The notes under the pieces were generated by a model. The model was given only the letters and a program-made list of their open reading frames with translations, was not told the DNA's origin and did not search any database. The position numbers and the translations under genes were made by a program. A stretch of DNA of 64,000 nucleotides from Gemmatimonadota bacterium (GTDB lineage Bacteria > Gemmatimonadota > Gemmatimonadetes > Longimicrobiales > Gaopeijiaceae), in contig JACZXQ010000014.1 in assembly GCA_022571515.1 (NCBI GenBank), positions 27,913 to 91,912 of the forward strand. Reading direction: 5' to 3'. Positions 13,466 through 54,816 of the stretch are shown here, one piece after another; position 1 is the first letter of the stretch; each line of letters starts with the position of its first letter.

Positions 13466-14302
13466 CTACGGCAGCCAGGGGTACTTCCGAAAGTCCGGTG
13501 GCCGCTTTTCGAGGAAGGCGTTCCTGCCCTCCTGGCCCTGCTCCGTCATGTAGAAGAGCAGCGTGGCGTTGCCGGCCAGCTCCTGCAAACCGGCTTGCCC
13601 GTCCAAGTCGGCGTTGAACGCCGCCTTGAGGCACCGGATGGCCAACGGGCTCTTGTCCAAGATGTCCTGAGCCCACTGCCAACCCTCGGCCTCCAACTCG
13701 GCCACCGGCACCACCTTGTTCACAAGTCCCATGTCGAGCGCTTCCCGCGCGTCGTACTGGCGACAGAGATACCAGATCTCCCGGGCCTTCTTCTGACCGA
13801 CGATCCGGGCCAGGTACGATGAGCCGAAGCCACCATCGAAGCTGCCTACCATGGGCCCGGTCTGGCCGAACACCGCGTTGTCGGCCGCGATCGTCAGGTC
13901 GCACACGACATGCAGGACGTGGCCACCCCCGATCGCGTAGCCGGCCACGAGAGCGATCACCGGCTTGGGCATGGTTCGGATGTAGCGCTGCAACTCGAGC
14001 ACGTTCAGGCGTGGCACACCATCGCTCCCAACGTACCCGGCCTCGCCTCGCACCCGTTGATCACCCCCGGAGCAAAAGGCGTACTTTCCGTCCCCGGCGG
14101 GTCCGTTTCCGGTAAAGAGCACCACGCCGATCGACGTGTCCTCGCCGGCGTCACGAAAAGCCTCGAGGAGCTCGAAAACGGTCTCGGGACGAAACGCGTT
14201 TCGGACCTCCGGCCGGTCGAATGCGATTCGGGCGACTCCGTCGCACTTATGGTAGGTGATGTCTTCAAAGTCCTTCACCACCTCCCAATCGGGCTGCGTC
14301 AT
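13466..14302 (-). CDS. menB: 1,4-dihydroxy-2-naphthoyl-CoA synthase
   Basis: [26 protein letters not shown]...[11 protein letters not shown]...[16 protein letters not shown]. Confidence 0.95.
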
Positions 14303-16089
14303 GCCAACACTCCTTTTCCTAGCTCAACCTTCACTGCGGCCGCCACGGCCGACACGACGTCCTGGCGGCGCCTGTAGCTCATCTCGCGGTCGAGCGGAAC
14401 TTCCAGAATCGCAGGGCCTTCTGTGTTCATTGCGTCCTCCAATGATTCCCCCAGGTCCTGGCTGCTCGTCACACGCCAATACGGAATCCCGTAGAGCTGC
14501 GCGACGCCACGGAAGTTGATCCCATGCGGTGTCAGGAAGTAGGACGTGAATTCCGGCTCGTGCTCGCGGATCGGTAACGCCTGAAAAATCCCACCTCCGT
14601 CATTGTGAATCACGATGAAGCTGACGTCGAGGCCGTACTTCGCCGCCGCGAGCAGCCCATTCATGTCGTGGTACATCGCGATGTCGCCCAGCACCGCGAC
14701 GGTCTTCCTGCCTGTTCCGACCTGCACCCCGAGGGCGCTGGACACAATGCCGTCGATCCCGCTCGCTCCTCGGTTTCCGTAGACGTGGACAACCTTGTCG
14801 GTCGGAGCCACGAACGCATCCAGATCCCTGACCGGCATGCTGTTGGATATGAAGAGGTTCCCATCGGTGGCAAGGCCGGCCACCGCCACCGCCACGACCA
14901 CTCCCTCGAACAAGCCTGCGGAAAGCGTCGTCTGGACCTCTGCTTGGGTGACTTCTTCTACGCGGGCCCATCCCTTTCGCCAGGAGTCCGAGGCGATCGC
15001 GTTGCTGAGACGGCCGCTCACGGCCTGGAGAAACTCGGCAGCGTCGGCCTCCACGTACTCACTGGCCACTGAAAGATGGTCCTTCCAGCGCCCCCCCGGA
15101 TCGATCACGACCTGGCGGGCCTCGGTGCTCTCTGCAAAGAGGCTGGCAAGCGACGCCGACGTCGGTGTGGCTCCTACGCGCAGAATCAGGTCCGGCCGCA
15201 TGCGCTTGCGGATGTCGGGGTCCCGCAGAAACAGGTCGTAGCCGCCGATCACGCTCTTGCAAGCACCCCCGAAACGCGCACCAGACAAAGGGTCGGCCAG
15301 GAGCGGGAACCCCGTCGCCGCGGCAAGACGCCCGGCCGCCATCCCGGTCTCATCCGGCGCCGCATTCGCGCCCACCACGATGATCCCGTTGCGCCGACTC
15401 CGACACAACTTTGCGACATGCTCCACGGCATCGCTCGGCACCGAGCGAGACCCCCGCACCACCCTCACGTAGGGATCCTCCTCCTGCCACCCACCGGGTT
15501 CACGCGTGACAGGACGCCCGCCAGGAGGATCCCCATCCGGACCGGACACGGGCTCGAGAGGCTTGGCAAACGGGAAGTTAAGATGCACGGGACCTGCCGG
15601 CGGGCCGGCCGCCACACTCACAGCGCGAGCGGCGAGCGTGCGGAGGTGCCGAAGCGCGGGCTCATCCGTGCTGGGTGGCGCCACCTCGTGGAACTCGCGC
15701 ACCTGCGTTCCGAACAGCCTGACTTGGTCGATCGCCTGGTTGGCGTCCGCGGCCCGAAGGCGATGGGGACGGTCGGCGGTCAGTACGATGAGCGGCACTT
15801 CGGCATGGAAAGCCTCGATAACCGCGGGGTGCAGGTTCGCGGCCGCCGTGCCGGACGTGGTGATAACCGCTGCGGGCATGCCCGTGGCACGTCCAATGCC
15901 CAGCGCGAAGAAACCTGCGGACCGCTCGTCGAGGTGCACGAAACGCTCGAAGCGGTCGTCTCTGGCCACGGCCATGACAAGGGGCGTCGAGCGAGATCCG
16001 GGTGCGATACAGACGTGGCGGACCCCGCAGGCCGCCAACTCCTGAACGAAGGCACGGGCCCAGGGAGTGTTCGCTCCACCAGGGTTCAC
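14299..16089 (-). CDS. menD: SEPHCHC synthase (ThDP-dependent)
   Basis: [31 protein letters not shown]...[10 protein letters not shown]...[12 protein letters not shown]. The GTG start overlaps the menF TGA (GTGA), and the stop overlaps the menB ATG. Confidence 0.9.
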
Positions 16090-17471
16090 AGGCGGGCCCC
16101 GCTGGCCTCGAGGGCACGCAGCACGGGCTCGAACTTGATGCCGGTCTCCTCCCACTCGAGTGCCGCGTCAGAGCCGGCGACGATCCCCGCTCCCGCGAAC
16201 AGCCGCCACTGCCTGCCGCGCACGACCGCACACCGTAGAGCCGGCGCAAACACGCCGTTGCCCGCGGCATCGAACCAACCGACCGGGCCGGCATACCAGC
16301 CGCGCTCGAACGGCTCCTGTCGGCTCAGAAACTCCAACGCCGCATCACGGGGTAACCCACACACCGCCGGCGTCGGGTGGAGCGCCTCTAGAATGTCGAG
16401 CACCCCGATCCCTTCGGGGATCCGGGCTTTGATTTCCGATTCGAGATGTTGGATCCTCGAGAGCGTCAGCACGTGAGGCTCGGCCTGAGCCTCGACGTCT
16501 TCAGCAAGGGGCGTCAGGCGGGCCACCATGTCATCCAGGGCAATCCCATGCTCCTCCCGATCCTTACGGCTGGACAGCAGGCGTTCGGCCAGGGCTCCCC
16601 GCTCTTCGGGGGTCGTTCCCACACCGATGGATCCGGCCACCGCAGTGGCTTGGAACGCACCATGCTGCAACGTCGCGACCGTCTCTGGGGCCGCCCCGAG
16701 GAGTGCGGCGCCCGGCCGAGGCTCGAACAGGAATACGTGCGTCCCGCGGTTTCGGTCCCAGAGGTGCTCGAGTACCTCGACAGGTCGCAGGAGTCCATCG
16801 GTTTTGAGATCGAGCGTACGCGCGAGCACTACCTTCGATACGGACGCCTCGCTGATGGCGGCGAGACTCGCCGAAATAGCCGCCTCCCATGCGGACCGGC
16901 CCGAGTCATTGCTATCGACGTCGATGGCGTGCTCGCCTGTGTGTTCTTGGCCTGCTTCGTGGGCAAGAGTCCGCCCGAACCGTTCGAGTCGCTCGCGAAG
17001 GTCTCTTGCGAGCTGGGACGGATCTTCGCCCACTCTGGCCAACGCATGGGCTCTCAGGGTGACCGGGCCTTCCCCGCCCGAAGCCTCTATGGACGGAAGG
17101 TGGAACAGCGCCGTCGGGAAGCCATCCCAGACACCGGCCTGTCGATGATCTGAGCGAAACGCGAAGCCTCCATAGAGCCGCGGTCCGCTCTCCCCGGGAG
17201 AGCCGAGTCCGAGCAACTCGCTGGCATCCGAGCGAACGGCTTGAAATCGGCCGTCCACGCCGGAAGTGGAGGCTGTAGCCACCACCTCGGCCGCAATTCC
17301 GGAGTGAGCGACCCAGTGTTCACCGCGCGCCCAGAACCCGCGCGCCTCCCCCTCCGCCGCCCTGAGGAAGGCCGAGGGTGACACGTCCGGCCCGGGCGCC
17401 GACACGGAGACCACGCGGCTCAGCGCCGCGGAAACCCCTACCCGCTCCATTGCGGGCTCGATTACAGACAA
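16086..17471 (-). CDS. menF: isochorismate synthase
   Basis: Chorismate-binding family: GAAPETVATL...SRKDREEHGIALDDM...LHPTPAVCGLP...RGWYAGPVGWFD...FAGAGIVAGSD. Confidence 0.85.
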   Translation of the reverse strand: MSVIEPAMERVGVSAALSRVVSVSAPGPDVSPSAFLRAAEGEARGFWARGEHWVAHSGIAAEVVATASTSGVDGRFQAVRSDASELLGLGSPGESGPRLYGGFAFRSDHRQAGVWDGFPTALFHLPSIEASGGEGPVTLRAHALARVGEDPSQLARDLRERLERFGRTLAHEAGQEHTGEHAIDVDSNDSGRSAWEAAISASLAAISEASVSKVVLARTLDLKTDGLLRPVEVLEHLWDRNRGTHVFLFEPRPGAALLGAAPETVATLQHGAFQATAVAGSIGVGTTPEERGALAERLLSSRKDREEHGIALDDMVARLTPLAEDVEAQAEPHVLTLSRIQHLESEIKARIPEGIGVLDILEALHPTPAVCGLPRDAALEFLSRQEPFERGWYAGPVGWFDAAGNGVFAPALRCAVVRGRQWRLFAGAGIVAGSDAALEWEETGIKFEPVLRALEASGARL

Positions 17472-17675
17472 CTGCTCGTCACGTCGAACGGGGACGCTCC
17501 CAGAGGTTAGTGCCGGGTGTGTCCGATCTCACGATCGGGACGGGAGACTATGAACGAAGAGAATATAGGGTGCTGCGGTGAACAACCAAGCCGTGAACGG
17601 CCTGACCGCTAGCTGTGGATGAGGTACGTGAGGAGCCACGCGACCGCCTGGGGTAGCATGTCGAAGGTGAAGAGC

Positions 17676-18059
17676 TCAGCTCCCACTGCGGTCAGCCTCT
17701 TGGATCATGTCCACCAGACGCTCCAACTCGTCGCGGTCCACCTCGTGTGCACGGACCAGGTGGCGGACGAGTGCCGAGGGGTCGCCCTCGAAGAGGCTCG
17801 CGGTCAGTTCGCGCACCTTGGAGTGGCGTACCTCCTTTTCGGTCACGAGCGCCCGATAGACGTACTGACGCCCCTCCTTGCGGTGAGACAAGACACCCCT
17901 CTTCTCGAGCCTCGAGAGCAGAGTCGCAACGGTGGTGAGAGCGAGACCCCGGACCTCCGCCATGGCGGCGTGGACCTGCTGGGTGGTAGCCTCTCCGCAC
18001 TCCCAGAGTATGTGGAGAATGGCGAGTTGGAGTTCGGTCAGGGCATGGCTATCCGTCAA
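17676..18059 (-). CDS. BlaI/MecI/CopY-family transcriptional repressor
   Basis: LTELQLAILHILWECGEATTQQVHAAM...LALTTVATLLSRLEKRGVLSHRKEGRQYVYRALV. Confidence 0.85.
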   Translation of the reverse strand: MTDSHALTELQLAILHILWECGEATTQQVHAAMAEVRGLALTTVATLLSRLEKRGVLSHRKEGRQYVYRALVTEKEVRHSKVRELTASLFEGDPSALVRHLVRAHEVDRDELERLVDMIQEADRSGS

Positions 18060-18224
18060 CGGCCTCTCCCGGTGGGAGATCTACTACGAGTGTATGACGT
18101 GCGGCCACCGCCGCGGGGTTGCCCCAGGGCGGGAGTAACCCCTGGTCCGGATCATGCAGTGTTCGCCATGTGGGTCCCGCAGCGTACCTTATGCGGGATC
18201 TTCACCGGTAGCGACGAGAATAGG

Positions 18225-19178
18225 ATGACACTAGTGGCTTCCAAGACAGCTTCGATTCGTTCTCAGTGCATGCGGAGAGCCAGACTCGCCGGGTGGATGG
18301 CCTGCGTGGCGGTTCCAGTGATCGCGGCTCCCACCGCAGCCCAGGCCCCCCCGGGGACCGACATCCTGATTGCAGACCTCGGCACCTTCAACGGCGTCTA
18401 CTACCTCGTCGGAGATCCCAAAAACGTCACGAAGAGGCCCGAGGCATACGACAATCAGCCGTTCTTCACGCCGGACAGCCGCTCGATCCTGTTCACGGCC
18501 GCCTACGAAGACGGTAACGACGGACAGACGGAGATCCACAGGTACTACCTCAGCGCAAGACGCACCGCCCGCATCACGCGTACCGCCGAGAGCGAGTACT
18601 CTCCCACTCCCGTGCCCGGCGATAGGGCCTTCTCAGCCATTCGCGTCGAAGCCGACTCGACTCAGCGACTCTGGCGCTTCACCATGGAGGGAATGGACCC
18701 GGAGGTCCTCTTGCCCAACCTCGACCCCGTGGGGTATCACGCGTGGGCTGACCCGAACACCCTGTTGCTCTTCGTTCTCGGTGAACCCTCCACCCTCCGT
18801 TTGGCCGACCTGCGCACCGCGCGTGTGGAGATCGTGGCCGAGAACGTGGGTCGTTCCATCCACAAGATTCCGACGAGGAACGCGTTCAGCTTCACCCAGC
18901 GTGTCTCGGACGACGAGGCCTGGATCACAGAGCTGGATCCGAACACGAAGGAGACGACCCGACTCGTCAGGACCCTTTCGGGGGGTGACTTCCACGCCTG
19001 GACGCCGGACGGTACGCTGCTCATGGCGGACGGTGGAAGCATCTACCAATGGAATCCCGGCCGGGCAAACGGTTGGCAGCGGATCGCCGACCTCAGCCGC
19101 ATGGGCCTCGAGTTCTCCCGGCTGGCCGTGAGCCCGGATGGGACGAAGATCGCGCTGGTCGGACAGGCGGCGAATTAG
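18225..19178 (+). CDS. periplasmic TolB-like beta-propeller protein
   Basis: Signal peptide (ACVAVPVIAAPTAAQA) and repeated F(T/S)PD(G/S) motifs (FFTPDSRSILF, AWTPDGTLL, AVSPDGTKIAL). The start is at Met 18225 or 18270. The upstream part of the track ORF is antisense to the BlaI gene. Confidence 0.6.
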   Translation: MTLVASKTASIRSQCMRRARLAGWMACVAVPVIAAPTAAQAPPGTDILIADLGTFNGVYYLVGDPKNVTKRPEAYDNQPFFTPDSRSILFTAAYEDGNDGQTEIHRYYLSARRTARITRTAESEYSPTPVPGDRAFSAIRVEADSTQRLWRFTMEGMDPEVLLPNLDPVGYHAWADPNTLLLFVLGEPSTLRLADLRTARVEIVAENVGRSIHKIPTRNAFSFTQRVSDDEAWITELDPNTKETTRLVRTLSGGDFHAWTPDGTLLMADGGSIYQWNPGRANGWQRIADLSRMGLEFSRLAVSPDGTKIALVGQAAN

Positions 19179-19474: not shown

Positions 19475-19882
19475 CTAGGCCGGAAGCGCGCATTGGATCG
19501 ACCGCTCGCGACGTAGAAGCTCCGCCCCGGAGACCGTCAGCAGCACGTTCTTCCCCACCGTGACCCAGGGGGGCAGTGCCACCATGGTCCCAAGACAGCC
19601 ACAGCTTTCCCAGCCGGCAAGGGTTGCGCCCAGGCTCCCCACGAGGAACGCCGTCAGGAGTGCCAGCACGGCCCGATACACCGAGAGCCGGGGATACCCC
19701 ACCAGCGCCACCACCGCAGCGGACTCCACCATGACCAGACCGGCAGCGAGGAGCAGGCCGGCACGCAGGGAGACGGCGAGTCGCGCCGCGAAGAAGGCCC
19801 CGGCACCCTGGAGGTCCAACCCCTTGGCGAGGGCGCTGGCCATGAGAGCCGTGACGAGGACTGCCCGAAGGAAGGTGCTCAT
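19475..19882 (-). CDS. MauE/DoxX-family redox-associated membrane protein
   Basis: 135 aa with about 4 TM segments and LAKGLDLQGAGAFF plus the WESCGCLG motif typical of MauE-type proteins. Its ATG overlaps the upstream stop (ATGA). It is hidden in the distal part of track ORF 19475..20173. Confidence 0.7.
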   Translation of the reverse strand: MSTFLRAVLVTALMASALAKGLDLQGAGAFFAARLAVSLRAGLLLAAGLVMVESAAVVALVGYPRLSVYRAVLALLTAFLVGSLGATLAGWESCGCLGTMVALPPWVTVGKNVLLTVSGAELLRRERSIQCALPA

Positions 19883-20544
19883 ATGCCCAACCGCCGAAGA
19901 TAGAGAACGAGCCCCACCTGAAGGGCGTTGAACGTGAAGAAGAGCCCGCCCACGACGATGGCAGCCGCGCGTCGCCGGACGCCTTCCGTCCGCGCCAGCC
20001 CCGTGTAGAGGACGCCGAACCAGACCAGCTCGAACGCGGACAAGGATCCCGCCAGGGCGCTGGCGGATGCCTGGAGGCCAGGGAAGAATGTGTGAAGCGT
20101 GCCCAGCGGCCGATAGAACGCCTCTGCCGTGACGGCAGGCCCGTCGAGACCGGCCCGGTACCACAGTACCCACGCCAGTTGAGCAGCCAAGACCACCTGG
20201 GCCACGACAGCCACCCGGAACAGCCTGGCAAACGGCGCTTCATGGTTCTGGAGTGCCAAAGACAGTTGCAGGAGCAGCGCCACCAGCCCGACTTGGACCG
20301 CCAGTACGATGGGAGTGATGAGGTAGGACCAGCCGGCCATGCGCCGATAGAGGGCCCACTGGCGATCCATACCGACTCCGTCCATGGAGCCCTCCAGGAG
20401 CAGATCGTGGATCTGCCGTGCCATGACCACGTCCCTCGAAATCCAGTTCATCACCAGGTAGGCGAAGACGAGCCCAAGGAGAACCTGAAGCGTCGATACA
20501 TGGACCGGACCCAAGGATCGCGGCCAGGGGTAGCGTCGAGTCAT
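19879..20544 (-). CDS. polytopic membrane protein of unknown function (candidate immunity/accessory protein)
   Basis: 221 aa from Met47 of the track ORF (MTRRYPWPRSLGPVHVSTLQVLLGLVFAYLV...), with about 5 hydrophobic segments. It starts 11 nt after the exporter stop. No family recognised. Confidence 0.55.
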   Translation of the reverse strand: MTRRYPWPRSLGPVHVSTLQVLLGLVFAYLVMNWISRDVVMARQIHDLLLEGSMDGVGMDRQWALYRRMAGWSYLITPIVLAVQVGLVALLLQLSLALQNHEAPFARLFRVAVVAQVVLAAQLAWVLWYRAGLDGPAVTAEAFYRPLGTLHTFFPGLQASASALAGSLSAFELVWFGVLYTGLARTEGVRRRAAAIVVGGLFFTFNALQVGLVLYLRRLGI

Positions 20545-20555
20545 CTCGGCGCTGT

Positions 20556-22727
20556 TCACGGGTGCAGTCCAGGAGTGAGAGTTTCTGCAGCCACGCTGGC
20601 GAGTTCGAGGTGGGGCGGTTCGGAGCGTGGGGGTGCCCCGGGGCGGATCTGGCCACCGGAGAGCACAAAGATACGATCGCACTGCTCAAGGGTGTGGACG
20701 TCGTGCGACACCATCAGGATTGCATGATCCGCAGCATAGCGGCGTAACAGCTCACCCACCGCGAGCGCCGTCTCGGAATCGAGGGCATTGGTCCCCTCAT
20801 CGATCAGGAGCACCGCGGGCTCGTCCAGGAGAGCGCGCATCAGACCGACGAACTGACGCTCACCGGAGGACAGCCGGCGTCCCGCCTCTCCCACCAAGGT
20901 CCCGAGGCCGTGTGGAAATCGGTGCAGATGCCCCTCCAGGCCGACCTCCCGGAGGCGTTCGATCAACCGCGGCAGCTCCGCACCGCTCCGGCCCAGGAGA
21001 ATGTTGTCGGCGATGGTACCATGGAGAAGCTTCGCGTCCTCCGGAACCACGACCACGTTGCGGCGCCATGACTCCAGTTCCACGGCCTCGGCCGGCTGTC
21101 CGTCTAGTAGTAAGCTTCCAGCCGTCACGGAGTAGCTTCGGTCCAGGATCCGCACCAGTGTGCTCTTCCCCGATCCGTTTCGCCCCCAAAGGCCCACGAG
21201 CTCTCCCCGGTGAACATCAATGCTCGCTCCCTGGAGGATGGGCGGCGCTCCCGGCCAACCGAAGTGCACGTCGCGCAGGGTCACGGAGCGGCGGAGAACC
21301 AGTGGGCGACCCTCGTGGACGACCTCCGCCTCGGCGTGCAGGATATCGAAAAGCCTCTGCGCGGCCGCGGAGGCCTGACGCAACGCGATGTGCATCTCGG
21401 CCAGACGACCCACTGAGGGCAACATGGCTGCGAGGAGGGCATAGACGGCGAGCATCGCTCCTAGCGCGATCTGGTCGGCGAGGACGAGCACTGCACCGCT
21501 GAGCAGTACGCACACCACGACGGCGTTAGCGGCCAGCTCGGCCAGCACGCCGATGCGGGCCTGGGTCGTAGCGAAGTGGGCGAGGCGCCCCTGGAAAGTG
21601 CGATGGTACGCGGAGTTCAACCGCGCGAAGAGCGTGGCTGCGTTGAAGCTCCGCACCTCACGGGCGCCAAGGATGCCGTCCAGGGACGAGGCCTGGAGAG
21701 CGCCGTACGACTGAAGGACCTCCCGCTGCTGCGACCTCACGGACCGGGTCGTCCACGCCACCAGGCCGCCGTACACCGGCACCGCGGCGACGGCGATCCA
21801 GGCCAGAGGGGGCGCGAAGAGGAAGGCCGCGCCGATGGAAGCCGGCACCACCAGGAGGTCTACCACCGCACCGCCGGCGAGGAGGAAGACCGCGTTCTGC
21901 ACCACCACGGCGTCATCCACGCGAGCGGCGATGTCCCCTGCCTTGCGTCGGTCAAAGAAGGCCACAGGAAGGCGAAAGAGGTGGGCGAAAAAGTCGTCGA
22001 TCATCCCCACGCTCACCCGCTCGCGGAGGCCTATGAGGAACCTCTGGCGGAGGAGGTTCACGCCCGCCCGGATTCCCTGGATCCCGAGGAGCAGCAGACC
22101 CGTGAGAAGCAGAAGGTCGAGTTCTCGACGGGGAATGAATCGATCGACGGTGGCTTGGATAAAGAGAGCGGTCAGCAGGCCCAGGGCCGTGTAGGCGGCT
22201 CCCAGAAAGGCGGACTGCACGAGCCAGGTATGCTCCAGCCGCACGTACGCCCACAGCCACCCGGTCCATGGCTCGGGACGGCTCTTCGCGATCTCCTCGC
22301 CTGGCTCCAAGAGGAGAACAGTTCCGTCCCGCCACATCTCCTCGAACCGGCTCCGAGTGAGAGATCGGAAGCCCTGAGCGGGGTCCATGATCAGCACTCC
22401 GTCGGGTCGTGCCTCGTACACCACGACGAAGTGCGCCTGGCCGTCGTCCAGGACCACGTGGGCGATGCACGGGAGCGCGACCTCCTGGAGTGAGATGTAG
22501 TCTCCACGGGCACCGGAGGCCTGGAGCCCGACCGCCTGAGCGGCCTCCGCGATCCCAGCCAGGGAGCTACCGTCCGAGCCCGTGCCCGAGAGTTCCCGGA
22601 GCCTGGGAAGGGGCAGCTCCCCCCCGTGGTATCGGAGGACACTGAGAATCGCCGCCGGCCCACAGTCGGTTCTCTCGTTTTGAAGCACGATAAGCGTCTT
22701 CGGAAGTCTCATGGTCCAGGGTCTCAT
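20556..22727 (-). CDS. peptidase-C39-domain ABC exporter (bacteriocin/double-glycine peptide processing-export type)
   Basis: N-terminal LQNERTDCGPAAILSVLRYHGG...AHFVVVYE...MDPA (Cys/His/Asp of C39), a six-TM domain, Walker A GRNGSGKST, signature LSSGERQ and Walker B LLIDEGTNALD. The start is ambiguous (ATG 22727 or 22712; the track uses GTG 22772). Confidence 0.9.
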   Translation of the reverse strand: MRPWTMRLPKTLIVLQNERTDCGPAAILSVLRYHGGELPLPRLRELSGTGSDGSSLAGIAEAAQAVGLQASGARGDYISLQEVALPCIAHVVLDDGQAHFVVVYEARPDGVLIMDPAQGFRSLTRSRFEEMWRDGTVLLLEPGEEIAKSRPEPWTGWLWAYVRLEHTWLVQSAFLGAAYTALGLLTALFIQATVDRFIPRRELDLLLLTGLLLLGIQGIRAGVNLLRQRFLIGLRERVSVGMIDDFFAHLFRLPVAFFDRRKAGDIAARVDDAVVVQNAVFLLAGGAVVDLLVVPASIGAAFLFAPPLAWIAVAAVPVYGGLVAWTTRSVRSQQREVLQSYGALQASSLDGILGAREVRSFNAATLFARLNSAYHRTFQGRLAHFATTQARIGVLAELAANAVVVCVLLSGAVLVLADQIALGAMLAVYALLAAMLPSVGRLAEMHIALRQASAAAQRLFDILHAEAEVVHEGRPLVLRRSVTLRDVHFGWPGAPPILQGASIDVHRGELVGLWGRNGSGKSTLVRILDRSYSVTAGSLLLDGQPAEAVELESWRRNVVVVPEDAKLLHGTIADNILLGRSGAELPRLIERLREVGLEGHLHRFPHGLGTLVGEAGRRLSSGERQFVGLMRALLDEPAVLLIDEGTNALDSETALAVGELLRRYAADHAILMVSHDVHTLEQCDRIFVLSGGQIRPGAPPRSEPPHLELASVAAETLTPGLHP

Positions 22728-22742
22728 TTGGGTATGCGCGGT

Positions 22743-22767
22743 CCCGGGGGGCAAAGCACCCCCCGGG
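22743..22767 (-). terminator. GC hairpin between precursor gene B and the exporter gene (attenuator/stabiliser candidate)
   Basis: The arms cccgggggg (22743-22751) and ccccccggg (22759-22767) are perfectly complementary, with a 7-nt loop. There is no U-tract. Confidence 0.4.
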
Positions 22768-22779
22768 GGCACGTCGCGT

Positions 22780-22932
22780 TCAGCAGAGTAGAGCGCCGCC
22801 AGCCAAACCGATTAGGCAGGCCCCTAGCATAAGACTCGCGCAGGAGATGTTAGTGACGATATTCAGCATCATGCACAGTTTTGCGTTTCCGCCATGCACA
22901 TCCTGCATTTCTCGCAGTGTAAGGTCGGTCAT
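22780..22932 (-). CDS. double-glycine-leader precursor peptide B (50 aa)
   Basis: MTDLTLREMQDVHGG|NAKLCMMLNIVTNISCASLMLGACLIGLAGGALLC. GGAGAA SD 6-7 nt upstream of the ATG at 22930-22932. This is the last 50 codons of track ORF 22780..23160. Confidence 0.75.
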   Translation of the reverse strand: MTDLTLREMQDVHGGNAKLCMMLNIVTNISCASLMLGACLIGLAGGALLC

Positions 22933-22990
22933 GATATTTTCTCCATGTGCTTTAGTGCCGTCTTCGACGGACACCTCGTTGTTGGGGGGG

Positions 22991-23016
22991 GGAGGGAGAC
23001 GTGAGCCCCTCCCTCC
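22991..23016 (-). terminator. hairpin between precursor genes A and B (attenuator/stabiliser candidate)
   Basis: ggagggag (22991-22998) pairs with ctccctcc (23009-23016), giving an 8-bp stem and 10-nt loop. It starts 11 nt after the peptide A stop. On the mRNA it is followed by a C-run, not a U-run. Confidence 0.4.
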
Positions 23017-23026
23017 GGCTCGCGCA

Positions 23027-23179
23027 TCAGAAGGAGCAGAGCGCCACACCTCCCACCAGACCGAGCCCGCAGGCCCAAAGAAACCCGACCATGCAGGAGA
23101 TGGCTGTGATTGCTGCCAGGGTGGCGCAATTCGTGCCACCCTGGATCTGCAGCATCTCATGCGTTGTGAGCGTTGTCAT
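23027..23179 (-). CDS. double-glycine-leader precursor peptide A (50 aa)
   Basis: MTTLTTHEMLQIQGG|TNCATLAAITAISCMVGFLWACGLGLVGGVALCSF. GGAGGA SD 7 nt upstream of the ATG at 23177-23179. This is the last 50 codons of track ORF 23027..23506. Confidence 0.75.
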   Translation of the reverse strand: MTTLTTHEMLQIQGGTNCATLAAITAISCMVGFLWACGLGLVGGVALCSF

Positions 23180-23252
23180 GGTAATTCCTCCATCGGGAAT
23201 CGAGTTGCAGATTCGCTCCCGCCGAACGCGGGACGCGTGGGGCGCCGGGTGA

Positions 23253-23801
23253 TCAACCGGTGCTGCCCCTCGTTGAAGCCTCCGGAGCTCCAATCTTGTG
23301 TAGCCCAGCCAAGAGGGCGTCCAGCGTCTTCTGACCGAGCACTTTTCTAAGTAGGGTGCGCTGGCGTCCGAACACATAAAGCCCAGGTGTGCCCGGCAGG
23401 GGGAACGCCTCCTCGAGGGCGGCGTCGTCGGAGAGGACCCACTGGACTCGCGGAGACGAGGCGAGAGCCGGCCAATCCTCACGGAGCAGATCCACGACCT
23501 CCGCATCCTCGTCGGTGACCAGCGCGAGGGTCAGATCGAGTGTGGCGAACCGCTCCACGTCACCCTCGAGCATGCGCAGTTCTTCCACACATGCCGAACA
23601 GGTGGTGTGATAGACCATGACGACGAGTCGCGATGCCCCCCCTGTTCGGAACGTCGTGCCAACGCCCTCCAGGGTCCGGATCTCCAGGTCGGGCAGAACC
23701 GAGCCCAGTGGCATGGGGTCGGGCTTCGCCGCCTCCAAGAGGAGCCAGCCTGCAAGTAGCAACATCGTCACCGTCACTGTAGCTGCGAGAACTCTTCGCA
23801 T
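23253..23801 (-). CDS. membrane-anchored TlpA/ResA-like thioredoxin-fold oxidoreductase (MauD-like)
   Basis: N-terminal TM (VTVTMLLLAGWLLL), then LPDLEIRTLEG...LVVMVYHTTCSACVEEL with a CxxC in a redoxin context. Confidence 0.75.
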   Translation of the reverse strand: MRRVLAATVTVTMLLLAGWLLLEAAKPDPMPLGSVLPDLEIRTLEGVGTTFRTGGASRLVVMVYHTTCSACVEELRMLEGDVERFATLDLTLALVTDEDAEVVDLLREDWPALASSPRVQWVLSDDAALEEAFPLPGTPGLYVFGRQRTLLRKVLGQKTLDALLAGLHKIGAPEASTRGSTG

Positions 23802-23816
23802 CGGGCGATCCCCCTG

Positions 23817-24536
23817 TCAGTCCTCAACCAGTCGGCCGCGCTGACAGCGCAAGTGGGCCACGGCCGTGAGAACGGCGATGAGCACGAGAACCTGAGCCAC
23901 ACCCAGGAATACCACCTCGGGAGTCAGTTCGGTGGGGACGTATCCCTCGAAGGTTTCGCTCCACTCCGGGGGGATGAGCGCTCCCACCATGGCCGGGCCG
24001 AGCATGGCGGCTATCACGATCATCGCCAGGGTTTCCGAGGCTCGTCTCCCAGTGGGCACGTGGAGGGAGACCAGCACGCCGACCACCGTGACAAGGGCGG
24101 CGGCCAGTAGGCTTGCGGCGGCGGCCGCCAGGAGCACGCGCGCGTCGGCGCCTCCACCGCGAAGGACGCCCAGGACGACGCCGACGCCGGTGACGGCTAT
24201 GGCGATGCTCCAACCGTAGAGCACGTTGGCGATGATCTTGCCCAACAGGAGGCCTCGATCGGAGATGCGGCTGGCCAGCAAGGTCTCCAGGGTGTGGTGC
24301 TCCCTCTCTCCCGCGAAACTGTCACCTACCACCGGGAGGATGAACAACACGGCCAGAAGGGCGGAAACGATCGGCGTTATGCTGGACCTGCCAAAGTCTG
24401 GGCCCACGACCTGGGATACGACCAGGCCGAGAACCGCGAGGATTCCCAGCCGGGCGATGCCAAAGAACCTGCCGCCTTCTTGCCGGAAGAACTCGACCCA
24501 CTCTTTCCGGATCATTGCCGAGACGTCCTGGATCAT
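23817..24536 (-). CDS. ABC-2 type transporter permease
   Basis: 239 aa with six hydrophobic segments. Its start overlaps the ATPase stop (ATGA at 24533-24536). Confidence 0.7.
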   Translation of the reverse strand: MIQDVSAMIRKEWVEFFRQEGGRFFGIARLGILAVLGLVVSQVVGPDFGRSSITPIVSALLAVLFILPVVGDSFAGEREHHTLETLLASRISDRGLLLGKIIANVLYGWSIAIAVTGVGVVLGVLRGGGADARVLLAAAAASLLAAALVTVVGVLVSLHVPTGRRASETLAMIVIAAMLGPAMVGALIPPEWSETFEGYVPTELTPEVVFLGVAQVLVLIAVLTAVAHLRCQRGRLVED

Positions 24537-25468
24537 GTCTCATCCTCCAGAAGCGAGAGGAACACCTCTTCGAGCGACGCAGCGAAGCCCCGGACCTCGG
24601 AGATCTCCACGCCACGGCCGACCAGGAGCGCCACCAGCGGCGGAGCGTCAGCGCCTTCGGCCAGGTCGATCCTGAGGACGTCGCCGTCCAGGGCAACGTC
24701 CAGCACGTCGGGCCGGGCCCTGATATCGGCGACGATTTCGGGTGTCATGCCCGAACCGACCACTTCCACACCGGGCCTCGTAGCTCGCCGCCGCAGTTCC
24801 TCGGGGACGCCCATGGCCAGGAGGCGGCCCTCGCGGAAAATCCCCACCGAGTCGCAGATCTGCTCCGCCTCGCCGAGGTTATGCGTCGTCAGGAACACCG
24901 TGACATCTTCGGCCCGCACCAGGCGAAGAAGATCCTGGCGGAGTGCCGCCGCCGAGCGGGCATCCAACCCCGCCGTGGGCTCGTCCAGGAGAAGGAGGCT
25001 CGGCCGGTGCATCATGGCGCGGGCGATGGCCAGCTTCTGTTTCATGCCCTTGCTCCACGTGGAGACGCGGTCTCCACGGCGCTCCCAGAGCTCGAAGCCC
25101 TCGAGAAGCTCCTGCATCCGTGCCCTGGCCTCCACACAGCCCATCCGGTTGATACGCGCATAGAAGTCGAGGTTTTCGACAGCGGTCAGGCGCTCGTAAA
25201 GCCCGTGGTGCTCCAGGAGCGCCCCACACTCCGCCCTCACCGTCTCCCCCTCACGGCTGGGATCGCGCCCGAAGATCAGTGCGCGACCTCCCGTCGGCTC
25301 GAGCAGGCCGAGGAGGAGCCGGAGGGTCGTGGTCTTTCCGGCGCCATTGGGACCGAGGAATCCGAACACGGAGTTTCGGGGCACCACGAGGTCCAGGTGA
25401 TCCACTGCTCTGAGGGCCCCGAAGTCCCGAGTCAGACCCTCGGCGTGAACAGCTGGCCCGGCGCTCAT
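24533..25468 (-). CDS. ABC transporter ATP-binding protein (ABC-2/DrrA-like)
   Basis: Walker A GPNGAGKTT, signature WSKGMKQKL, Walker B LLLLDEPTAGLD and H-loop TTHNL. Confidence 0.9.
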   Translation of the reverse strand: MSAGPAVHAEGLTRDFGALRAVDHLDLVVPRNSVFGFLGPNGAGKTTTLRLLLGLLEPTGGRALIFGRDPSREGETVRAECGALLEHHGLYERLTAVENLDFYARINRMGCVEARARMQELLEGFELWERRGDRVSTWSKGMKQKLAIARAMMHRPSLLLLDEPTAGLDARSAAALRQDLLRLVRAEDVTVFLTTHNLGEAEQICDSVGIFREGRLLAMGVPEELRRRATRPGVEVVGSGMTPEIVADIRARPDVLDVALDGDVLRIDLAEGADAPPLVALLVGRGVEISEVRGFAASLEEVFLSLLEDET

Positions 25469-25581
25469 TTGCTTCCGCCGAGGAGTGCGTACGCCTGGCC
25501 TGGCCCAACCTCCAGATTCACATCGATCAGAGCGGAAATCGAGCCATAGCTCTTGTGAACGTGTCGTGTGCTAAGGTGCAT
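25465..25581 (-). pseudogene. 38-codon N-terminal remnant of a second ABC ATPase
   Basis: My own translation gives MHLSTRHVHKSYGSISALIDVNLEVGPGQAYALLGGSK*. It stops where Walker A should begin, and its TGA overlaps the ATG of the intact ATPase gene. Confidence 0.45.
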
Positions 25582-34805: not shown

Positions 34806-37532
34806 CTATTCAGGCACGACGCTTACCGGGCACACCTTGAGTTCGGCGGTCTGGGTAATGGGGTCGTATCCACCACCCGTAAGCGCATTCACCGGAACGT
34901 CGGCAAAGCTGAAGGTCGTAAACACCGTGCCGCGTGGCGACCGTTTGGTGGCCTTCACGCGCACGCGCACCGAGCCTCGCCGGCTCGACATGATCGCCCA
35001 TGACCTGTCGGCCAGGCCCCACTCATCGACATCGTCGGGGTGGATCTCCAGCGACTCCTCCGACAGCAGGTAGTCGATGCCTGCCGAGCGCCCGGTCTGG
35101 GTACGCGTATGGTACGACGCCAGGCGGCGGCCCGTGGTGAGCCAGACGGGGTAGTCATCGTCCACCGTCTCGGCAGGATCGCGCTGCTCCACGAGATTGA
35201 AGATCCCCCGTCCGTTCACGAACTCGTCGGAGTGCAGCATCGGGGTCCCTGGGTGGCCGTCGAAGGGAACCGGCCACTGATACGCGCCCTCTTCGACCTT
35301 GTCCCAGTCGACGCCGTGGTAGATGGGCGATACCTCGCAGAGCTCGTTGAAGACCTGCTCGGCGCCCTCGTACTCGAAGCCCTGGAACCCCATGCGCTTC
35401 GCGAGCGCCGAGATCACCCACCAGTCGGGCCGCGCTACTCCGGGCGAGGGGACCGCGGCTCGGAGACGCTGGATCCGCCGCTCGGTGTTGGTCTGCGTGC
35501 CGTCCACTTCACCCCAAGCGGCCACGGGGAACACCACGTCCGCAAGCTCCGCGGTCTCGGTCAGGAAGAGGTCGGCGACGACCAGGAAATCGAGGCTTCT
35601 CAGGGCCTTCTCGCAGTGCGCTCGATCGGGGTCCGACACCAGCGTGTTCTCGCCATCGATGAACATCGCTCGAATCTGATCGCCGCACATCTCGAGGGCG
35701 GTCACCTTGGTGATGCCATTCTCGAGATCCACCTTCTTGCCGTACAACTTCTCGAACTTCTCCTGGTTCTCGGGATCGGTGACCGGCTGGAAGCCTGGAT
35801 AATTGTTCGGAAGGGCGCCCGCATCGCCCGCGCCCTGGATGTTGTTCTGGCCGCGCATCGGATTGATGCCGGTGCCCTCGCGGCCGATGTTGCCGGTCAT
35901 CAACACCAGGTTGCACAGGCCCTGCACGTTCTCGACACCGCAGATGTGCTCGGTCACACCTAGCGTGTAATAGATCGCGCCGCGCTCTGCCCGCCCGTAC
36001 CAGAGCGCTGCCTGTTCGATGTCGGCCGCCGGTACGCCCGTGATCTCTTCCGCCCACTCCGGCGGGAAGCGCTCCACGTGCTCGAGGAAGGCCATCCCTT
36101 CCGTCGTGCGGGCGTCCATGAAGGCCTGATCCACCAGCCCTTCACGCGCGATGACGTGCGCCATCCCGAGCAACAGGGCCGAGTCGGTACCGACCCTGAG
36201 CGGCAGGTAGACGTCCGCCAGGTCCGCGAGCACGATGTGCCGGGGGTCGGCGACGATCAGCTTCGCACCGTTGGCGAGGGCCCTCTTGATGCCCGTCGCC
36301 GCGACCGGATGACACTCCGTCATGTTGGTCCCGATGCAGAAGATCACATCGGGCTTGTCCATGTCCGCCAGCGGGTTCGACATGGCGCCCCGACCGATGC
36401 TTGCCGCCAGACCGGCGACGGTGGGGGCGTGTCAAGCACGGCTGCAGTTGTCGATGTAGCTCGTCCCCAGCCCCGCCCGCACAAACTTCTGCATCATGTA
36501 GGCGGCCTCGGTGGGCGCCCGCCCCGATGCCACCACGTAGAGGCTGTGCCGCCCGTGGTTGTCGACAGCCGCGAGCAGCCCCGCCGCCGCCTTGTCGAGG
36601 GCGTCGTCCCAGGTGGCGGGGTGAAGCTGGCCGTCGTCTCCGCGGACCAACGGCGTATCCAACCGGTCCTTGTGTCCGATGAAGTCGAAGGCGAATTGAC
36701 CCTTCACGCACAGCGCGCCGTGATTCGCGGGCCCATCCATGGCCGGCAGCACACCCACGACCTGATCGCCCCGCGTCATGAGATCGACGCTGCATCCCAC
36801 GCCGCAGTAAGGACAGATGGTGCGCGTGAGCTTGGTTTCACCCGGCACGTCCTTGCTTGCGAGCGCCTTCAAGTCGGCGAGCGCCCCCGTCGGGCAGGTC
36901 TGGATGCACTGCCCACAGAAGGTGCACGCCGAGTCTTTGAGGATTCCATCGAACTCGGTGGTGATCTGCGTTCCGAATCCCCGGTTCATCACGCTGATGG
37001 CGTAGTCGCCCTCCTGCTCGGCGCAGACCCGCACACACCGGAAACAGGAGATGCAGTTCTCATAATCCCGGAGGATGAAGGGGTTGGGGTCGTCCGGGTG
37101 GCTTGTGCCGGACTGCATACCGAGAAAGCGGCCGGTGCGCGCGTCGTAACGGTCGAGCAGCGTCGCCATCTCCCCCGACGCGTAGCCGCTCATCGGATCG
37201 ACGTCCAGATCGCGATTCTCTGACGCGACCAACTCCAAGAGCACGCGCCGATGCATGTCCAAGCGGCCACTCTTGGTGGTCACCTTCATGCCCGGGGCGG
37301 CCTTGGTCGTACACGAAGCCACCGGATTGTGGCTGCCCTCGACCTCGACGATGCACAGCCGGCATCCGCCGAAGGGCTCTAACCGCTCATCGTAGCAGAG
37401 TGTCGGGATCTCGCGCCGGTAGCGCTCCGACACCTCGTAGACGGTCTCACCCGGGGTAAAGCCGACGTCCTCTCCGTCCAACGTCATCGTGGAGAGCGCG
37501 CCGTTTCCCCCACCGTCGATGTTATCGCTCAT
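34806..37532 (-). CDS. fdhA: formate dehydrogenase catalytic subunit (FdsA/FdhA type with N-terminal 2Fe-2S/4Fe-4S domains), selenocysteine-containing
   Basis: Track ORFs 36432..37532 and 34806..36383 are in the same frame and are separated only by TGA 36432-36434. The read-through gives ...YIDNCSRA-U-HAPTVAGLAASIGRGAMSNPL, aligning with the ..ARV(U/C)H.P(S/T)VAGL...G.GAM(S/T)N active-site motif of formate dehydrogenases. Confidence 0.85.
36403..36419 (-). promoter_or_regulatory. SECIS-like hairpin 12 nt downstream of the in-frame UGA
   Basis: The mRNA reads GUCGCC-GGUCU-GGCGGC (6-bp stem including one G-U pair). The apical GGUC-containing loop resembles the E. coli fdhF SECIS mini-helix. 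Confidence 0.55.
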
Positions 37533-52190: not shown

Positions 52191-54816
52191 CTAGACGGTC
52201 TTCATGGACTGGACCGGATCGACGTTGGAGGCCCGACGCGCTGGCAGGTAGCTCGCTAGGAACACCACGGCCATGAGTAGTGCGGAGGTGCCACCGAACG
52301 TCAGCGGATCCAGAGCCTCGGTACCGTACAACAGGCCCTGCAGCACACGCGTTAGCCCTACTGAGGCCAGGAGACCCAGGCCGAGGCCGATGGCAGCGAG
52401 CCGCACTCCCTGCATGACGACCATCTTGCGTATCGAACCGACAGGTGCACCTAGAGCGATTCGGACACCGATCTCCTGCGTGCGTTGGCTGACCACGTAG
52501 GACAGGACGCCGTACAGCCCCACCGCACCGAGTATGAGCGCAATGCCTGCTGAGATCGCGAGAGTGAGCATCGTGAACGAGAGGCGGACCAAATCATTGG
52601 AGACGAGCTCCTCCATCGTGGTCATCGTCGTGAGTGGAAGATCGGAATCCAGCTCCCACACCTGCGCCCTTACCAACGGACCGAGACTCTCCACTCCGCG
52701 CCCCCGAATCGTGTACGATAGGGACGACGCGCCCCAGCCGTCGTTACCCTGCGGCCCTACGATGGGAAGGTAGATCATCTCCGAAGGGTCCTCGCGAAGT
52801 CCCCGGTCCCGCACGCTGCCCACCACGCCCGCGATAGTCAGCCAGCCGTTCAGCGTGTCACCGGTGAACCGAATCCGCTTGCCGATGACGTCGGCGTTGC
52901 CGTCTCCCCAAAAACGTTCGACCAGCGCCTGGCTCACGACGATGGCGTCGGAACCTTCTTCGTGGTCCCTGGACTCGAAGGTACGTCTGGCCATGAGCGG
53001 GATCTTCATCGTCTCGAAGAAGCCGGCCGCCGTGAAGGTGTTCCAGAGTATCGGGGGTAATGTCCCCGCCTCGCTGGGGAACTCCTCAACGTCGAACGCG
53101 GTGCCGGAGGCGCCGCCCTGGAGCGGAATGTCCCGGGCCGAGCCCACCGACTCGACGCCGGGCAGGGCAGCGAGACGCTCCATCAAACGGGCATGAAAAC
53201 CAGCCTGGGCGAACGGCGTGTCGTACTTCCCTCCCGGCAGGATCAGCCGGAACGTGAGAACGTCTTCGGCCACGAAGCCCGGGTCGATCGACCGGATCTC
53301 CCAGAAGCTCCTGACCAGGAGCCCGGACCCCACGAGGAGCACCAGCGCCATGCCGGTCTGTGCAATCACCAGCAGGTTCCGCAAAGCGTGCCGGTCGGCT
53401 CCAGCCGTGCCTCGGCCTCCCTGCTTCAGCGTCGCAAGCAGGCGAGGCGACGTGTACCGGAAGACCGGCATCAGTCCGAACAGGAGGACCGCCAACCCGG
53501 TGATGCCGGTCGTAAAGCCGAGCACACCGGCATCCATACCGACCCCGTCCATTCGGGGCAGGTTGTCGGGCGCCAAACTCAGGAGCACGGGGACTCCAAC
53601 CCATGCCAGCGTGAGCCCAGCCAGGCCACCGAGCACCGCGAGCACCGCTCCCTCGGCAAGAAAGTGCCTGACCAGAGCGGACCGGCTCGCCCCCAGAGCC
53701 GAGCGGACGGCGATCTCCCGTTGGCGGGCCTCCGCCCGTACCAGGAAGAGGTTGGCCACGTTCGCGCATGCAATCATATAGTACGAACCCGACAGTGCCG
53801 AGCAGAATCCAGAGCGGACGCCGGAGATCGCCCACGACCTGCTCTTTGTAAAAGAGAAGCCGTGGAGCGTACTTCCCCTCGTCGAGGAACTGGACGAAGC
53901 TGGTCCCGCCCTTGCTCGCCTGTGCAGCGGAGTCGTCTCGTAACCTCTGCACGACCTGGGCCATTCGGGCCCGTACCTGGTCCAGTTCCGCTCCCTTCTT
54001 CAGGCGTCCAATGGACTGGAACAAGAACGAGCCGGGAGACGCGGTGGCGGGATCGATCGCCAGGGGCATCCAAAGCTGCGTGTCCTCGAAGGGGAACCCG
54101 AAGCTCTCGGGGCATGACGCCTACGATGTCGCGCGTCACTCCATCGACCTGGAGAGTGCGCCCAAGCACGTCACGAGACCCCGAGTACCGGGCCTGCCAA
54201 ACGGCATGGCTGATGACGACGACCTGAGGTCCTTCGGGCAGGTCCTCCTCCTCCGTGAAGTTGCGTCCCAAAAGCGGCGAAACACCGAGCGTGGGGAAGA
54301 GCGTCCGACTCGTGAAGCTGGCATCGATACGCTCTGGATTCCCGTCGCCGGTGACGTTCACCGCCGTCCTGTTCAAGAGCGCTAGTTCCTCGAAGATCTG
54401 GGCGTCGCTGTACTGGAAGTAAATACCCGGCGACAACGGGAAGTTGTCGTAGCCGAGTCCCGGCGCATCGCTTCTGACCGCCACTAGCTGATCTGGATCC
54501 TCGAACGGCATCGGCCTCAGGAGAACCCCGTTGACCACACTGAAAATCGCTGTGTTGGCGCCTATGCCGAGCGCCAGCGTCAGAGCTGCCACCGCCGTAA
54601 ATGCGGGAGTCCGGACCAATGCCCGGATCGCGTACCGAATGTCCCGTATCACCTGACTCAACATGCCATCCCCTCTTCCCCTCGCCCGGCGTCCACCCTC
54701 CGCTGGAACTCCTCCCGGAGGTCACCCAAAATGCTGCGGCCCGCGATGCTGCCTGGGAGCACGCTTCCGAGTAGCCACTCAGCGAGCCTCGGAGGCCCGG
54801 TCGGCCCTTTCGTCAT
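52191..54816 (-). pseudogene. PadR-associated duplicated FtsX/MacB-type permease (ADOP-like), three frame disruptions
   Basis: The prefix PPRLAEWLLGSVLP...ILGDLREEF (54658..54816) runs out of frame into MLSQVIRDIRYAIRALVRTPAFT... There is a frameshift in a C4 run near 54110 (VGVMP|ESFGFPFEDTQLWMPLAIDP) and another near 53777 (GTVGFVL|MIACANVANLFLVRAEAR). A second FtsX module follows to 52191. Confidence 0.75.

Follow-up and report, generated by a model that had tools for sequence, protein, structure and literature searches.

Bacteroidetocins, the proposed class IIf bacteriocins of Bacteroidetes, carry a 15-aa double-glycine (GG) leader and four cysteines, and their loci, found in diderm cells, encode a protein with five transmembrane (TM) segments, a thiol oxidoreductase and a peptidase-containing ATP-binding cassette (ABC) transporter (PCAT), with no membrane fusion protein (MFP) (Coyne et al. 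2019, PMC6671954). Full activity depends on the TM protein and the oxidoreductase, how the peptides cross the outer membrane is unexplained, and the peptides themselves are class IIa-like, of 42 aa, with a positive charge of +2 to +6 and no more than moderate hydrophobicity (PMC6671954). Here we describe a self-contained seven-gene cassette, with one or two peptide genes, which lies on the minus strand at 19475-25468 of a 64,000-nucleotide stretch of Gemmatimonadota DNA (contig JACZXQ010000014.1; this whole stretch is called the window below) and encodes two 50-aa precursors, A and B. Judged by analogy, bacteroidetocins appear to be the closest system-level counterpart, followed by the sublancin-type glycocins; the match to bacteroidetocin loci is a likeness of architecture by description. 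The cores here differ from bacteroidetocins in being 33-39 aa long, with a net charge of -3 to +1, almost wholly hydrophobic and built on a palindromic C-x10-C-x7-C-x10-C spacing, and the cassette adds MauE and ABC-2 genes that bacteroidetocin loci, as far as described, do not have.

Sublancin and glycocin F hold four symmetrically spaced cysteines in two nested disulfides across two helices. The cassette resembles glycocin loci in its GG leaders, its SunT-type PCAT and the thioredoxin-like and membrane oxidoreductase genes of the operon, whereas glycocin cysteines are spaced x6/loop/x6 rather than x10/x7/x10, the inter-cysteine segment here is hydrophobic and without turn-formers, the membrane partner is MauE-like instead of DsbB-like, and the host here is diderm. 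Glycocin clusters contain a thioredoxin, a DsbB and a SunT-type exporter (PMC6405829). Assignment to the glycocins (sublancin, glycocin F or pallidocin type) was rejected because no cassette has a SunS-type glycosyltransferase and there is no glycosylated loop.

The class IIb bacteriocins (lactococcin G, plantaricins E/F and J/K; TIGR03949) are similar in their tandem GG-leader genes upstream of a PCAT gene, their small-residue helix-packing motifs and their membrane-active helical peptides. In contrast, they are cationic, generally Cys-free, from Firmicutes, and work as an obligate pair with a conserved GxxxG, and neither the pair nor the GxxxG is conserved here. Class IIb membership was thus rejected on pair conservation, GxxxG, charge (-3 to +1) and model scores, B reaching 14.6 bits against TIGR03949 (cut-off 21.5) and A 18.2 bits against PF10439 Bacteriocin_IIc (cut-off 27.1). 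Class II microcins (MccV, MccL, MccN) are unmodified or disulfide-only GG-leader peptides of diderms, hydrophobic, Gly-rich and of low charge. They differ in their length of 60-90 aa, in the CvaA-type MFP and TolC that accompany their PCAT and in a small immunity protein, none of these accompanying features being seen here; this class was also rejected, on size and because no MFP was found in the cassettes or among the window open reading frames (ORFs) scanned, a scan that was not exhaustive.

Homologues of MauE and MauD have been noted, without characterisation, in candidate clusters for ribosomally synthesised and post-translationally modified peptides of Streptomyces, and a MauE paired with a thioredoxin-fold CxxC protein is thought to handle the disulfides of an exported Cys-rich polypeptide (PMC7794033). 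A MauE-family membrane protein is likewise paired with a CxxC thioredoxin-fold protein here, in this case with no other mau genes and with a 35-aa peptide as the prospective client instead of the small subunit of methylamine dehydrogenase. Each element of the peptide family and cassette has a known analogue, and the whole is best filed under the theme of disulfide-bonded class II bacteriocins and microcins.

Two short peptide genes with GG leaders and four-cysteine cores

The precursor genes are as follows.

23027..23179, minus strand: precursor A, a 153-nt ORF encoding 50 aa plus stop, with leader MTTLTTHEMLQIQGG and core TNCATLAAITAISCMVGFLWACGLGLVGGVALCSF (35 aa).
22780..22932, minus strand: precursor B, a 153-nt ORF encoding 50 aa plus stop, with leader MTDLTLREMQDVHGG and core NAKLCMMLNIVTNISCASLMLGACLIGLAGGALLC; a paralogue of A.

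A preliminary description of this DNA had proposed two paralogous precursors with GG leaders, one cysteine spacing and almost uncharged cores, and all of these features were recovered. Both ORFs were read on the minus strand exactly as quoted there, each behind a Shine-Dalgarno-like site (GGAGG/GGAG; GGAGGAATTACC-ATG for A and GGAGAAAATATC-ATG for B). The two 15-aa leaders share M-15, L-12, E-8, M-7, I/V-4 and GG at -2/-1. This is the classical pattern of GG leaders, which have a length of about 15-30 aa, hydrophobic residues at -12, -7 and -4 and an acidic one at -8. An intact C39-peptidase ABC exporter is encoded immediately downstream. The cysteines stand at 3/14/22/33 in core A and 5/16/24/35 in core B, a 10-7-10 spacing in both; the net charge is 0 for A and +1 for B, and the grand average of hydropathy (GRAVY) is 1.68 and 1.56, respectively. 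The two precursors are 46% identical (BLASTP, E=2e-10). A codon-level pattern of the leader Met, GG, four Cys, Ala and two Gly matched once in the window and never in 100 shuffles. The 50-aa ORFs, rather than longer overlapping ORFs of 126 aa and 159 aa, were called in 23 independent contigs of the same species, a protein identical to A (P0002) being called on 17-23 contigs; B corresponds to P0001.

A very rare family with an invariant cysteine frame

A search with a profile of A and B retrieved 3 proteins among 5.8 billion, an exhaustive HMMER search of 1.84 billion representatives found 10 peptides, and a second profile search found 14. Together with two second-copy genes read directly from their loci, the family comprises 16 distinct peptides of 48-54 aa (among ~5.8 billion proteins), a call of 90 aa (P0013) being an over-extension. 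The leader is 15 aa long in every member except one, where it has 17 aa, and ends in GG in 16/16; in an alignment of 11 sequences (A3), M1, L4, M9, G14 and G15 are invariant and E8 is common.

The preliminary description had left it to homologues to bear out the cysteine pattern, and every homologue keeps it strictly: all 16 members have the 31-residue block C-x10-C-x7-C-x10-C, with no indel between C1 and C4. Within this block A19, G23 and G26 are invariant, and L4, T8, S11 and G15 nearly so. The cores are very hydrophobic throughout (GRAVY 0.8-1.7) and, as the charges given above show, remain neutral or nearly so. The GxxxG helix-packing motif singled out earlier did not hold up in the same way; each of cores A and B has one, but at that position it is found in only 4/16 members; in most of the family the place of the second Gly is taken by Y, D, E, F or H, usually Tyr. 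What is conserved instead is a G15-xxx-A19-xxx-G23-xx-G26 stripe, with its invariant glycines spaced GxxG.

None of the 16 peptides has a name or a Pfam or NCBIfam family, and searches of these models gave only sub-threshold, leader-driven matches to Bacteriocin_IIc and TIGR03949. A tblastn search with peptide A against plasmids gave no match, and a codon-level DNA pattern scan of Joint Genome Institute (JGI) metagenomes returned one contig only (L104), with the same peptide pair as contig L016. Literature on MauE together with peptidase C39 and on Gemmatimonadota bacteriocins yielded no description of the family, and no report of a bacteriocin or peptide toxin from Gemmatimonadota-like bacteria was found in the literature searched. 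The four-cysteine hydrophobic peptides are a real, very rare and undescribed family.

A conserved cassette, probably for export and thiol redox chemistry

Besides the peptide genes, the cassette contains the following genes.

24533..25468, minus strand: ABC ATPase of 311 aa (Pfam ABC_tran 5.1e-30, DrrA1-3_C 2.3e-6), partner of the permease, whose gene it overlaps by 4 nt.
23817..24536, minus strand: ABC-2 type permease of 239 aa (Pfam ABC2_membrane_2 2.2e-11), a candidate self-protection exporter.
23253..23801, minus strand: membrane-anchored thioredoxin-fold protein of 182 aa with C68-S-A-C71, of ResA/TlpA type, with one N-terminal hydrophobic segment.
20556..22712, minus strand: PCAT of 718 aa with a C39 peptidase, an ABC membrane domain and an ATPase (Peptidase_C39 1e-31, ABC_membrane 2.9e-29, ABC_tran 5.6e-26).
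19879..20559, minus strand: polytopic membrane protein of unknown function, 221-226 aa, with ~5 hydrophobic segments and no conserved Cys (alternative start 20544).
19475..19882, minus strand: MauE-like membrane protein of 135 aa with C94-G-C96 (Pfam MauE, 27.1 bits).

The genes are transcribed in the order ABC ATPase, ABC-2 permease, thioredoxin, A, B, PCAT, polytopic membrane protein and MauE-like protein, with several 4-nt overlaps. The same genes occur in the same order in every related contig that is long enough (L001, L012/13, L015, L016, L018, L019, L020-22 and L023), and the cassette is kept across loci whose peptides are only 35-60% identical and whose GC content ranges over 58-72%; the ABC-2 permease was found in the cassettes of L001, L012, L015, L018, L021 and L022.

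The PCAT gene adjoins the peptide genes in all loci. The C39 match of the encoded protein covers positions 4-132 of 133 in the profile, and its best solved relative is PCAT1 (4ry2, E=4.5e-86), with which the TDCG, AHFVV and DP motifs align; these we take to hold the catalytic Cys, His and Asp of PCAT1. In the thioredoxin, the CxxC and the Thr-Pro of the cis-Pro loop are invariant in 9 orthologues, and its profile matches structures of ResA/TlpA-type extracytoplasmic oxidoreductases (E=3.7e-8), with no match to a MauD model in NCBIfam at E<=1. The MauE-like protein also matches the NCBIfam BT_3928 N-terminal domain (1.8e-7), its orthologues in L012, L016, L019 and L020 give strong Pfam MauE matches, and C-G-C-[FL]-G is invariant in 5 orthologues. 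Given that a thioredoxin with an invariant CxxC and a MauE-like protein with an invariant CGC are encoded in the same operon, disulfide formation is likely.

The gene for the ~5-TM protein directly follows the PCAT gene in every locus long enough. This protein had no match in Pfam, NCBIfam, the PDB or PADLOC, and none by tblastn against plasmids; its AlphaFold2 (AF2) model, based on a 3-sequence alignment, was of low confidence (pLDDT, the predicted local distance score, 57). A profile search with it returned at least 3 clusters, with low-complexity hydrophobic words saturating the candidates. A scan with the 3-sequence alignment found nothing in 185,579 species genomes, though the window's own sequence fits the pattern, and thus neither the species nor the cassette is in that collection.

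No genes for radical-SAM enzymes, LanB/C/M, glycosyltransferases or metallochaperones were present in the ~10 cassettes examined, and no sactisynthase or LanB/C/M gene was listed within 10 kb in the Pfam gene lists of L002-L011. With radical-SAM, lanthipeptide and glycosyltransferase genes absent from every cassette, no modification other than disulfides is evident. A sactipeptide or lanthipeptide was rejected for want of radical-SAM and LanB/C/M enzymes. PADLOC defence models gave only generic ATPase matches. An anti-phage defence system was rejected too. The neighbouring epimerase and aminotransferase genes are divergently transcribed and show no conserved association with the cassette.

Two further observations concern the edges of the cassette. 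A Yip1-domain membrane protein of 236-243 aa flanks it in L015 (319-1029) and L020 (4533-5264); it resembles the ~5-TM protein in length and hydrophobic layout, with an hhalign probability of 2.8%, which is not significant. A 38-aa ORF (MHLSTRHVHKSYGSISALIDVNLEVGPGQAYALLGGSK; window 25465..25581, minus strand) shares 4 nt with the start of the ABC ATPase gene and was also called in the same-species contigs L002, L003 and L006-L011. It resembles the N-terminal ~40 residues of an ABC ATPase with a degenerate Walker A, and is probably the remnant of a duplicated or truncated ATPase gene.

Fold and cysteine pairing

The palindromic 10-7-10 spacing points to an antiparallel pairing of the cysteines (C1-C4 and C2-C3), and in this respect it agrees with the disulfide-stapled hairpin proposed in the preliminary description. 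The hairpin itself is less secure. AF2, given the 11-sequence alignment, predicted one continuous helix over residues 17-48 (mean pLDDT 71), and the 7-residue segment between C2 and C3 is as hydrophobic as the rest, without the turn-formers Pro, Asn or Asp. Column conservation across the 31-residue block follows a single helical periodicity of 96-97 degrees per residue (permutation p 0.002; p 0.0002 when the Cys columns are left out), with a phase that is coherent through the first half, the linker and the second half, and the G-xxx-A-xxx-G stripe crosses the supposed C2-C3 loop. A glycocin-type helix-loop-helix meets the same two-sided evidence: the cysteine spacing fits it, but the single predicted helix and the stripe through the loop do not.

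Taken together, the predicted helix, the hydrophobicity of the linker and the coherent periodicity make an antiparallel, disulfide-laddered dimer as plausible as a hairpin, although these considerations, drawn from 16 sequences and a shallow AF2 alignment, establish neither. The conservation stripe would suit an interface between helices, as in a dimer, no less well than a hairpin. In its specific form, with straight ~32-residue helices that carry the Cys and a G/A/S/T stripe on one side and chains zipped antiparallel by four intermolecular disulfides (A2, B2 or A-B), the dimer is a tentative proposal that we hold to be unlikely rather than likely. If this is true, the MauE/thioredoxin pair would make, outside the cytoplasm, a covalent, uncharged transmembrane dimer. 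Exported membrane-active peptides would then gain a class of new structure, and MauE-family proteins their first defined client other than methylamine dehydrogenase.

Proposed function of the cassette

We consider it rather likely, without regarding the case as strong, that A and B are unmodified, disulfide-bonded bacteriocin- or microcin-like peptides with dedicated oxidation, export and ABC-type self-protection. The 50-aa precursors would bind the C39 domain of the adjacent PCAT, which would cut after Gly15 and pump the 35-aa cores across the inner membrane. In the periplasm, the anchored ResA/TlpA-like thioredoxin would use its CxxC to oxidise the four cysteines or to shuffle their bonds, so that each chain acquires two disulfides, and the MauE-like CGC protein would serve as the membrane partner that recycles it. 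The antiparallel pairs could form within one chain, giving a hairpin, or between two, giving a covalently laddered helical dimer. The expected product is an uncharged, extremely hydrophobic, disulfide-locked helical peptide that acts in membranes, most likely a bacteriocin- or microcin-like toxin against related bacteria, which would have to pass the outer membrane of its producer. The ABC ATPase and the ABC-2 permease would clear the peptide from the producer's own membrane and thereby protect the cell, and the ~5-TM protein may be needed for production or immunity, like its counterpart in bacteroidetocin loci.

The divergence of the cores is of a kind that would suit a toxin. Core A and its orthologue in L001 differ by 13 nonsynonymous and 4 synonymous codons, concentrated between C2 and C4, next to thioredoxin and PCAT proteins that are 88-89% identical between the window and L001; such fast divergence beside conserved neighbours is typical of toxin specificity regions, though the numbers are small.

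Among the proteins encoded in the window are a TonB-dependent outer-membrane protein of SusC/RagA type and a permease of the ADOP family, and its TyrS is closest to Gemmatimonadota and Longimicrobiales metagenome-assembled genomes (62-67% identity; 64-67% for the nearest, from Gemmatimonadota), which indicates a diderm, Gemmatimonadota-like host. Several points weigh against a secreted toxin made in the way proposed. No HlyD/MFP or TolC-type gene was found in any cassette or among the window ORFs scanned, a scan that was not exhaustive, which leaves release from a diderm cell unexplained, and no small immunity protein, regulator or quorum-sensing module was recognisable. Known bacteriocins are usually cationic, in contrast to the neutral to anionic family described here. 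ResA/TlpA-type thioredoxins are classically reductants, and the redox direction is therefore uncertain. The score of the window's MauE-like protein lies only at the threshold (27.1 bits against a PF07291 cut-off of 27.0), the single helix predicted by AF2 at moderate confidence leaves the fold unsettled, and the toxin role itself is argued from sequence and context.

If confirmed, the cassette would add a peptide family without a Pfam or NCBIfam model, from a little-studied phylum, and its uncharged, almost purely hydrophobic, disulfide-bonded products would widen bacteriocin chemistry beyond cationic peptides. MauE-family proteins are widespread and poorly understood, and the cassette, with a 35-aa client, a thioredoxin and a MauE, offers a simple system for working out their role. 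Together with the bacteroidetocin loci, it also points to a recurring architecture in diderms of the Fibrobacteres-Chlorobi-Bacteroidetes (FCB) group, namely a PCAT, a thiol oxidoreductase and a 5-TM protein without an MFP, which sharpens the question of how, or whether, such peptides leave the cell. For the architecture there are clear precedents; what makes the cassette worth experiment is its chemistry, the link to MauE, the phylum and the question of the fold.

Alternative explanations

A first alternative, which we judge unlikely yet deserving of weight, is that the peptide is no secreted toxin and stays in the inner membrane or periplasm of the producer. There it could be part of the membrane, form a channel, take part in stress or redox responses or act as a signal, and one form it might take is a transmembrane helical dimer or oligomer with a disulfide ladder. 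Such a role would suit a diderm host in which no MFP or outer-membrane partner was found, as well as uncharged cores with a GRAVY of 0.8-1.7. It would also suit the ~32-residue helix predicted by AF2, the periodicity that stays coherent over 31 residues, and a G-xxx-A-xxx-G stripe that runs through the supposed loop as a helix-helix interface would. However, a dedicated ABC-2 exporter pair and a fast-diverging core are traits of toxin loci, there is no adjacent sensor or regulator, and the patchy, very rare distribution suits an accessory weapon more than a housekeeping part of the membrane. Bacteroidetocins, moreover, are active toxins despite the same MFP-less architecture (PMC6671954).

The preliminary description had also seen in A and B a possible class IIb-like toxin pair. 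On that account they would form an obligate two-peptide bacteriocin, acting only together and in equal amounts as a heterodimer packed through GxxxG, which we find distinctly improbable. A and B do stand in tandem in one operon, and tandem pairs occur in three lineages (the window; L105/L106, with P0004 and P0012; and L012/L016/L104). A groups with P0004 and P0003, and B with P0012, the second gene of the L105/L106 pair and the nearest relative of B, so that both the A-like and the B-like copy of the window have an orthologue in L105 and the duplication predates the window species; B also weakly matches the lactobin A/cerein 7B family TIGR03949 (E=0.022). On the other hand, six related locus types (L001, L015, L018, L019, L020 and L023) have a single peptide gene. 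They include the closest relative, L001, which has an A-type gene only, with the PCAT gene directly next to it and flanking genes 88-89% identical to those of the window. These single-gene loci make an obligate two-peptide mechanism unlikely, and the scarcity of GxxxG at the A/B position and the TIGR03949 and Bacteriocin_IIc scores under their cut-offs speak against it as well. Unlike known class IIb pairs, A and B are homologous to each other, uncharged and Cys-rich. They look like alternative or additive variants rather than an obligate pair.

It is very improbable that the cysteines serve for something other than disulfides, that is, for metal binding or for thioether, sactionine or S-glycosyl modification by enzymes encoded elsewhere. 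Four invariant cysteines are also a hallmark of sactipeptides and glycocins, and the role of MauE is not biochemically defined (PMC7794033). Yet the ~10 cassettes hold none of the radical-SAM, LanB/C/M, glycosyltransferase or metallochaperone genes that such chemistry would involve, their only conserved Cys-active proteins are the CxxC thioredoxin and the CGC membrane protein, and the cysteine spacing is not a metal-binding motif.

Finally, the idea that A and B are chance ORFs or mis-annotations within longer real genes (22780..23160 and 23027..23506) can be dismissed, for although such in-frame ORFs do exist and the homologue P0013 was called as 90 aa, the Shine-Dalgarno sites precede the 50-aa starts, the M-x-x-L...GG leader of all 16 sequences is conserved from its first residue, relatives do not share the N-terminal extensions, and the 159-aa ORF would overlap the conserved thioredoxin gene.

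RNA hairpins and transcription signals

Two GC-rich stem-loops were predicted near the peptide genes.

22991..23016, minus strand: stem-loop of 9 bp just past the stop codon of A (RNA fold; z=-1.45 for the whole spacer, weak support).
22743..22767, minus strand: stem-loop of 10 bp between the stop codon of B and the exporter gene (RNA fold -30 kcal/mol, z=-2.5).

Comparable stem-loops follow the last peptide gene in L001 (~4735-4765), L015 (~3823-3863), L018 (~2630-2668) and L023 (~926-958), and were absent from L012 and L016. Those of the window and the related loci have 9-13 bp, lie between the peptide and exporter genes and have no U-tract after them. The hairpin after the last peptide gene may stabilise or attenuate the transcript, as in many bacteriocin operons. 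A scan for promoter and terminator consensus sequences gave nothing above the shuffled expectation, and Rfam and tRNA scans of the window found nothing.

Genomic surroundings of the cassette

Menaquinone genes lie near the cassette (window 13466..17471, minus strand; L002 15730-20153) and encode an isochorismate synthase, a MenD-like thiamine diphosphate (ThDP) enzyme, a MenB-like protein of the enoyl-CoA hydratase family and a UbiA-family prenyltransferase. Membrane thiol oxidoreductases usually pass their electrons to quinones. Other cassette loci do not share this linkage, which is probably coincidental.

A convergent gene for a PD40 beta-propeller protein (window 17619..19178; L002 14002-15504) encodes 519 aa in both the window and L006. 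The version in L002-L005 encodes 285-302 aa and is followed by a gene for a BlaI/MarR-type repressor, a case of strain variation beside the cassette.

Farther away, a 528-aa ORF (52191..53777, minus strand) covers no more than positions 283-801 of the ADOP ("duplicated orphan permease") model, which has 803 residues. The N-terminal part that it lacks may be encoded by a 296-aa ORF upstream (53774..54664, minus strand), with which it has a 4-nt overlap; the two could represent a split gene or a frameshift. At 36432..36434 (minus strand), an in-frame TGA splits the formate dehydrogenase alpha ORFs 36432..37532 and 34806..36383, in the context ...IDNCSRA-TGA-HAPTVAGLAASIGRGAMSN. This context matches what we take to be the selenocysteine site of FdhF-type enzymes (CARV-U-HGPSVAGL), and the two ORFs are probably one selenoprotein gene rather than two genes.

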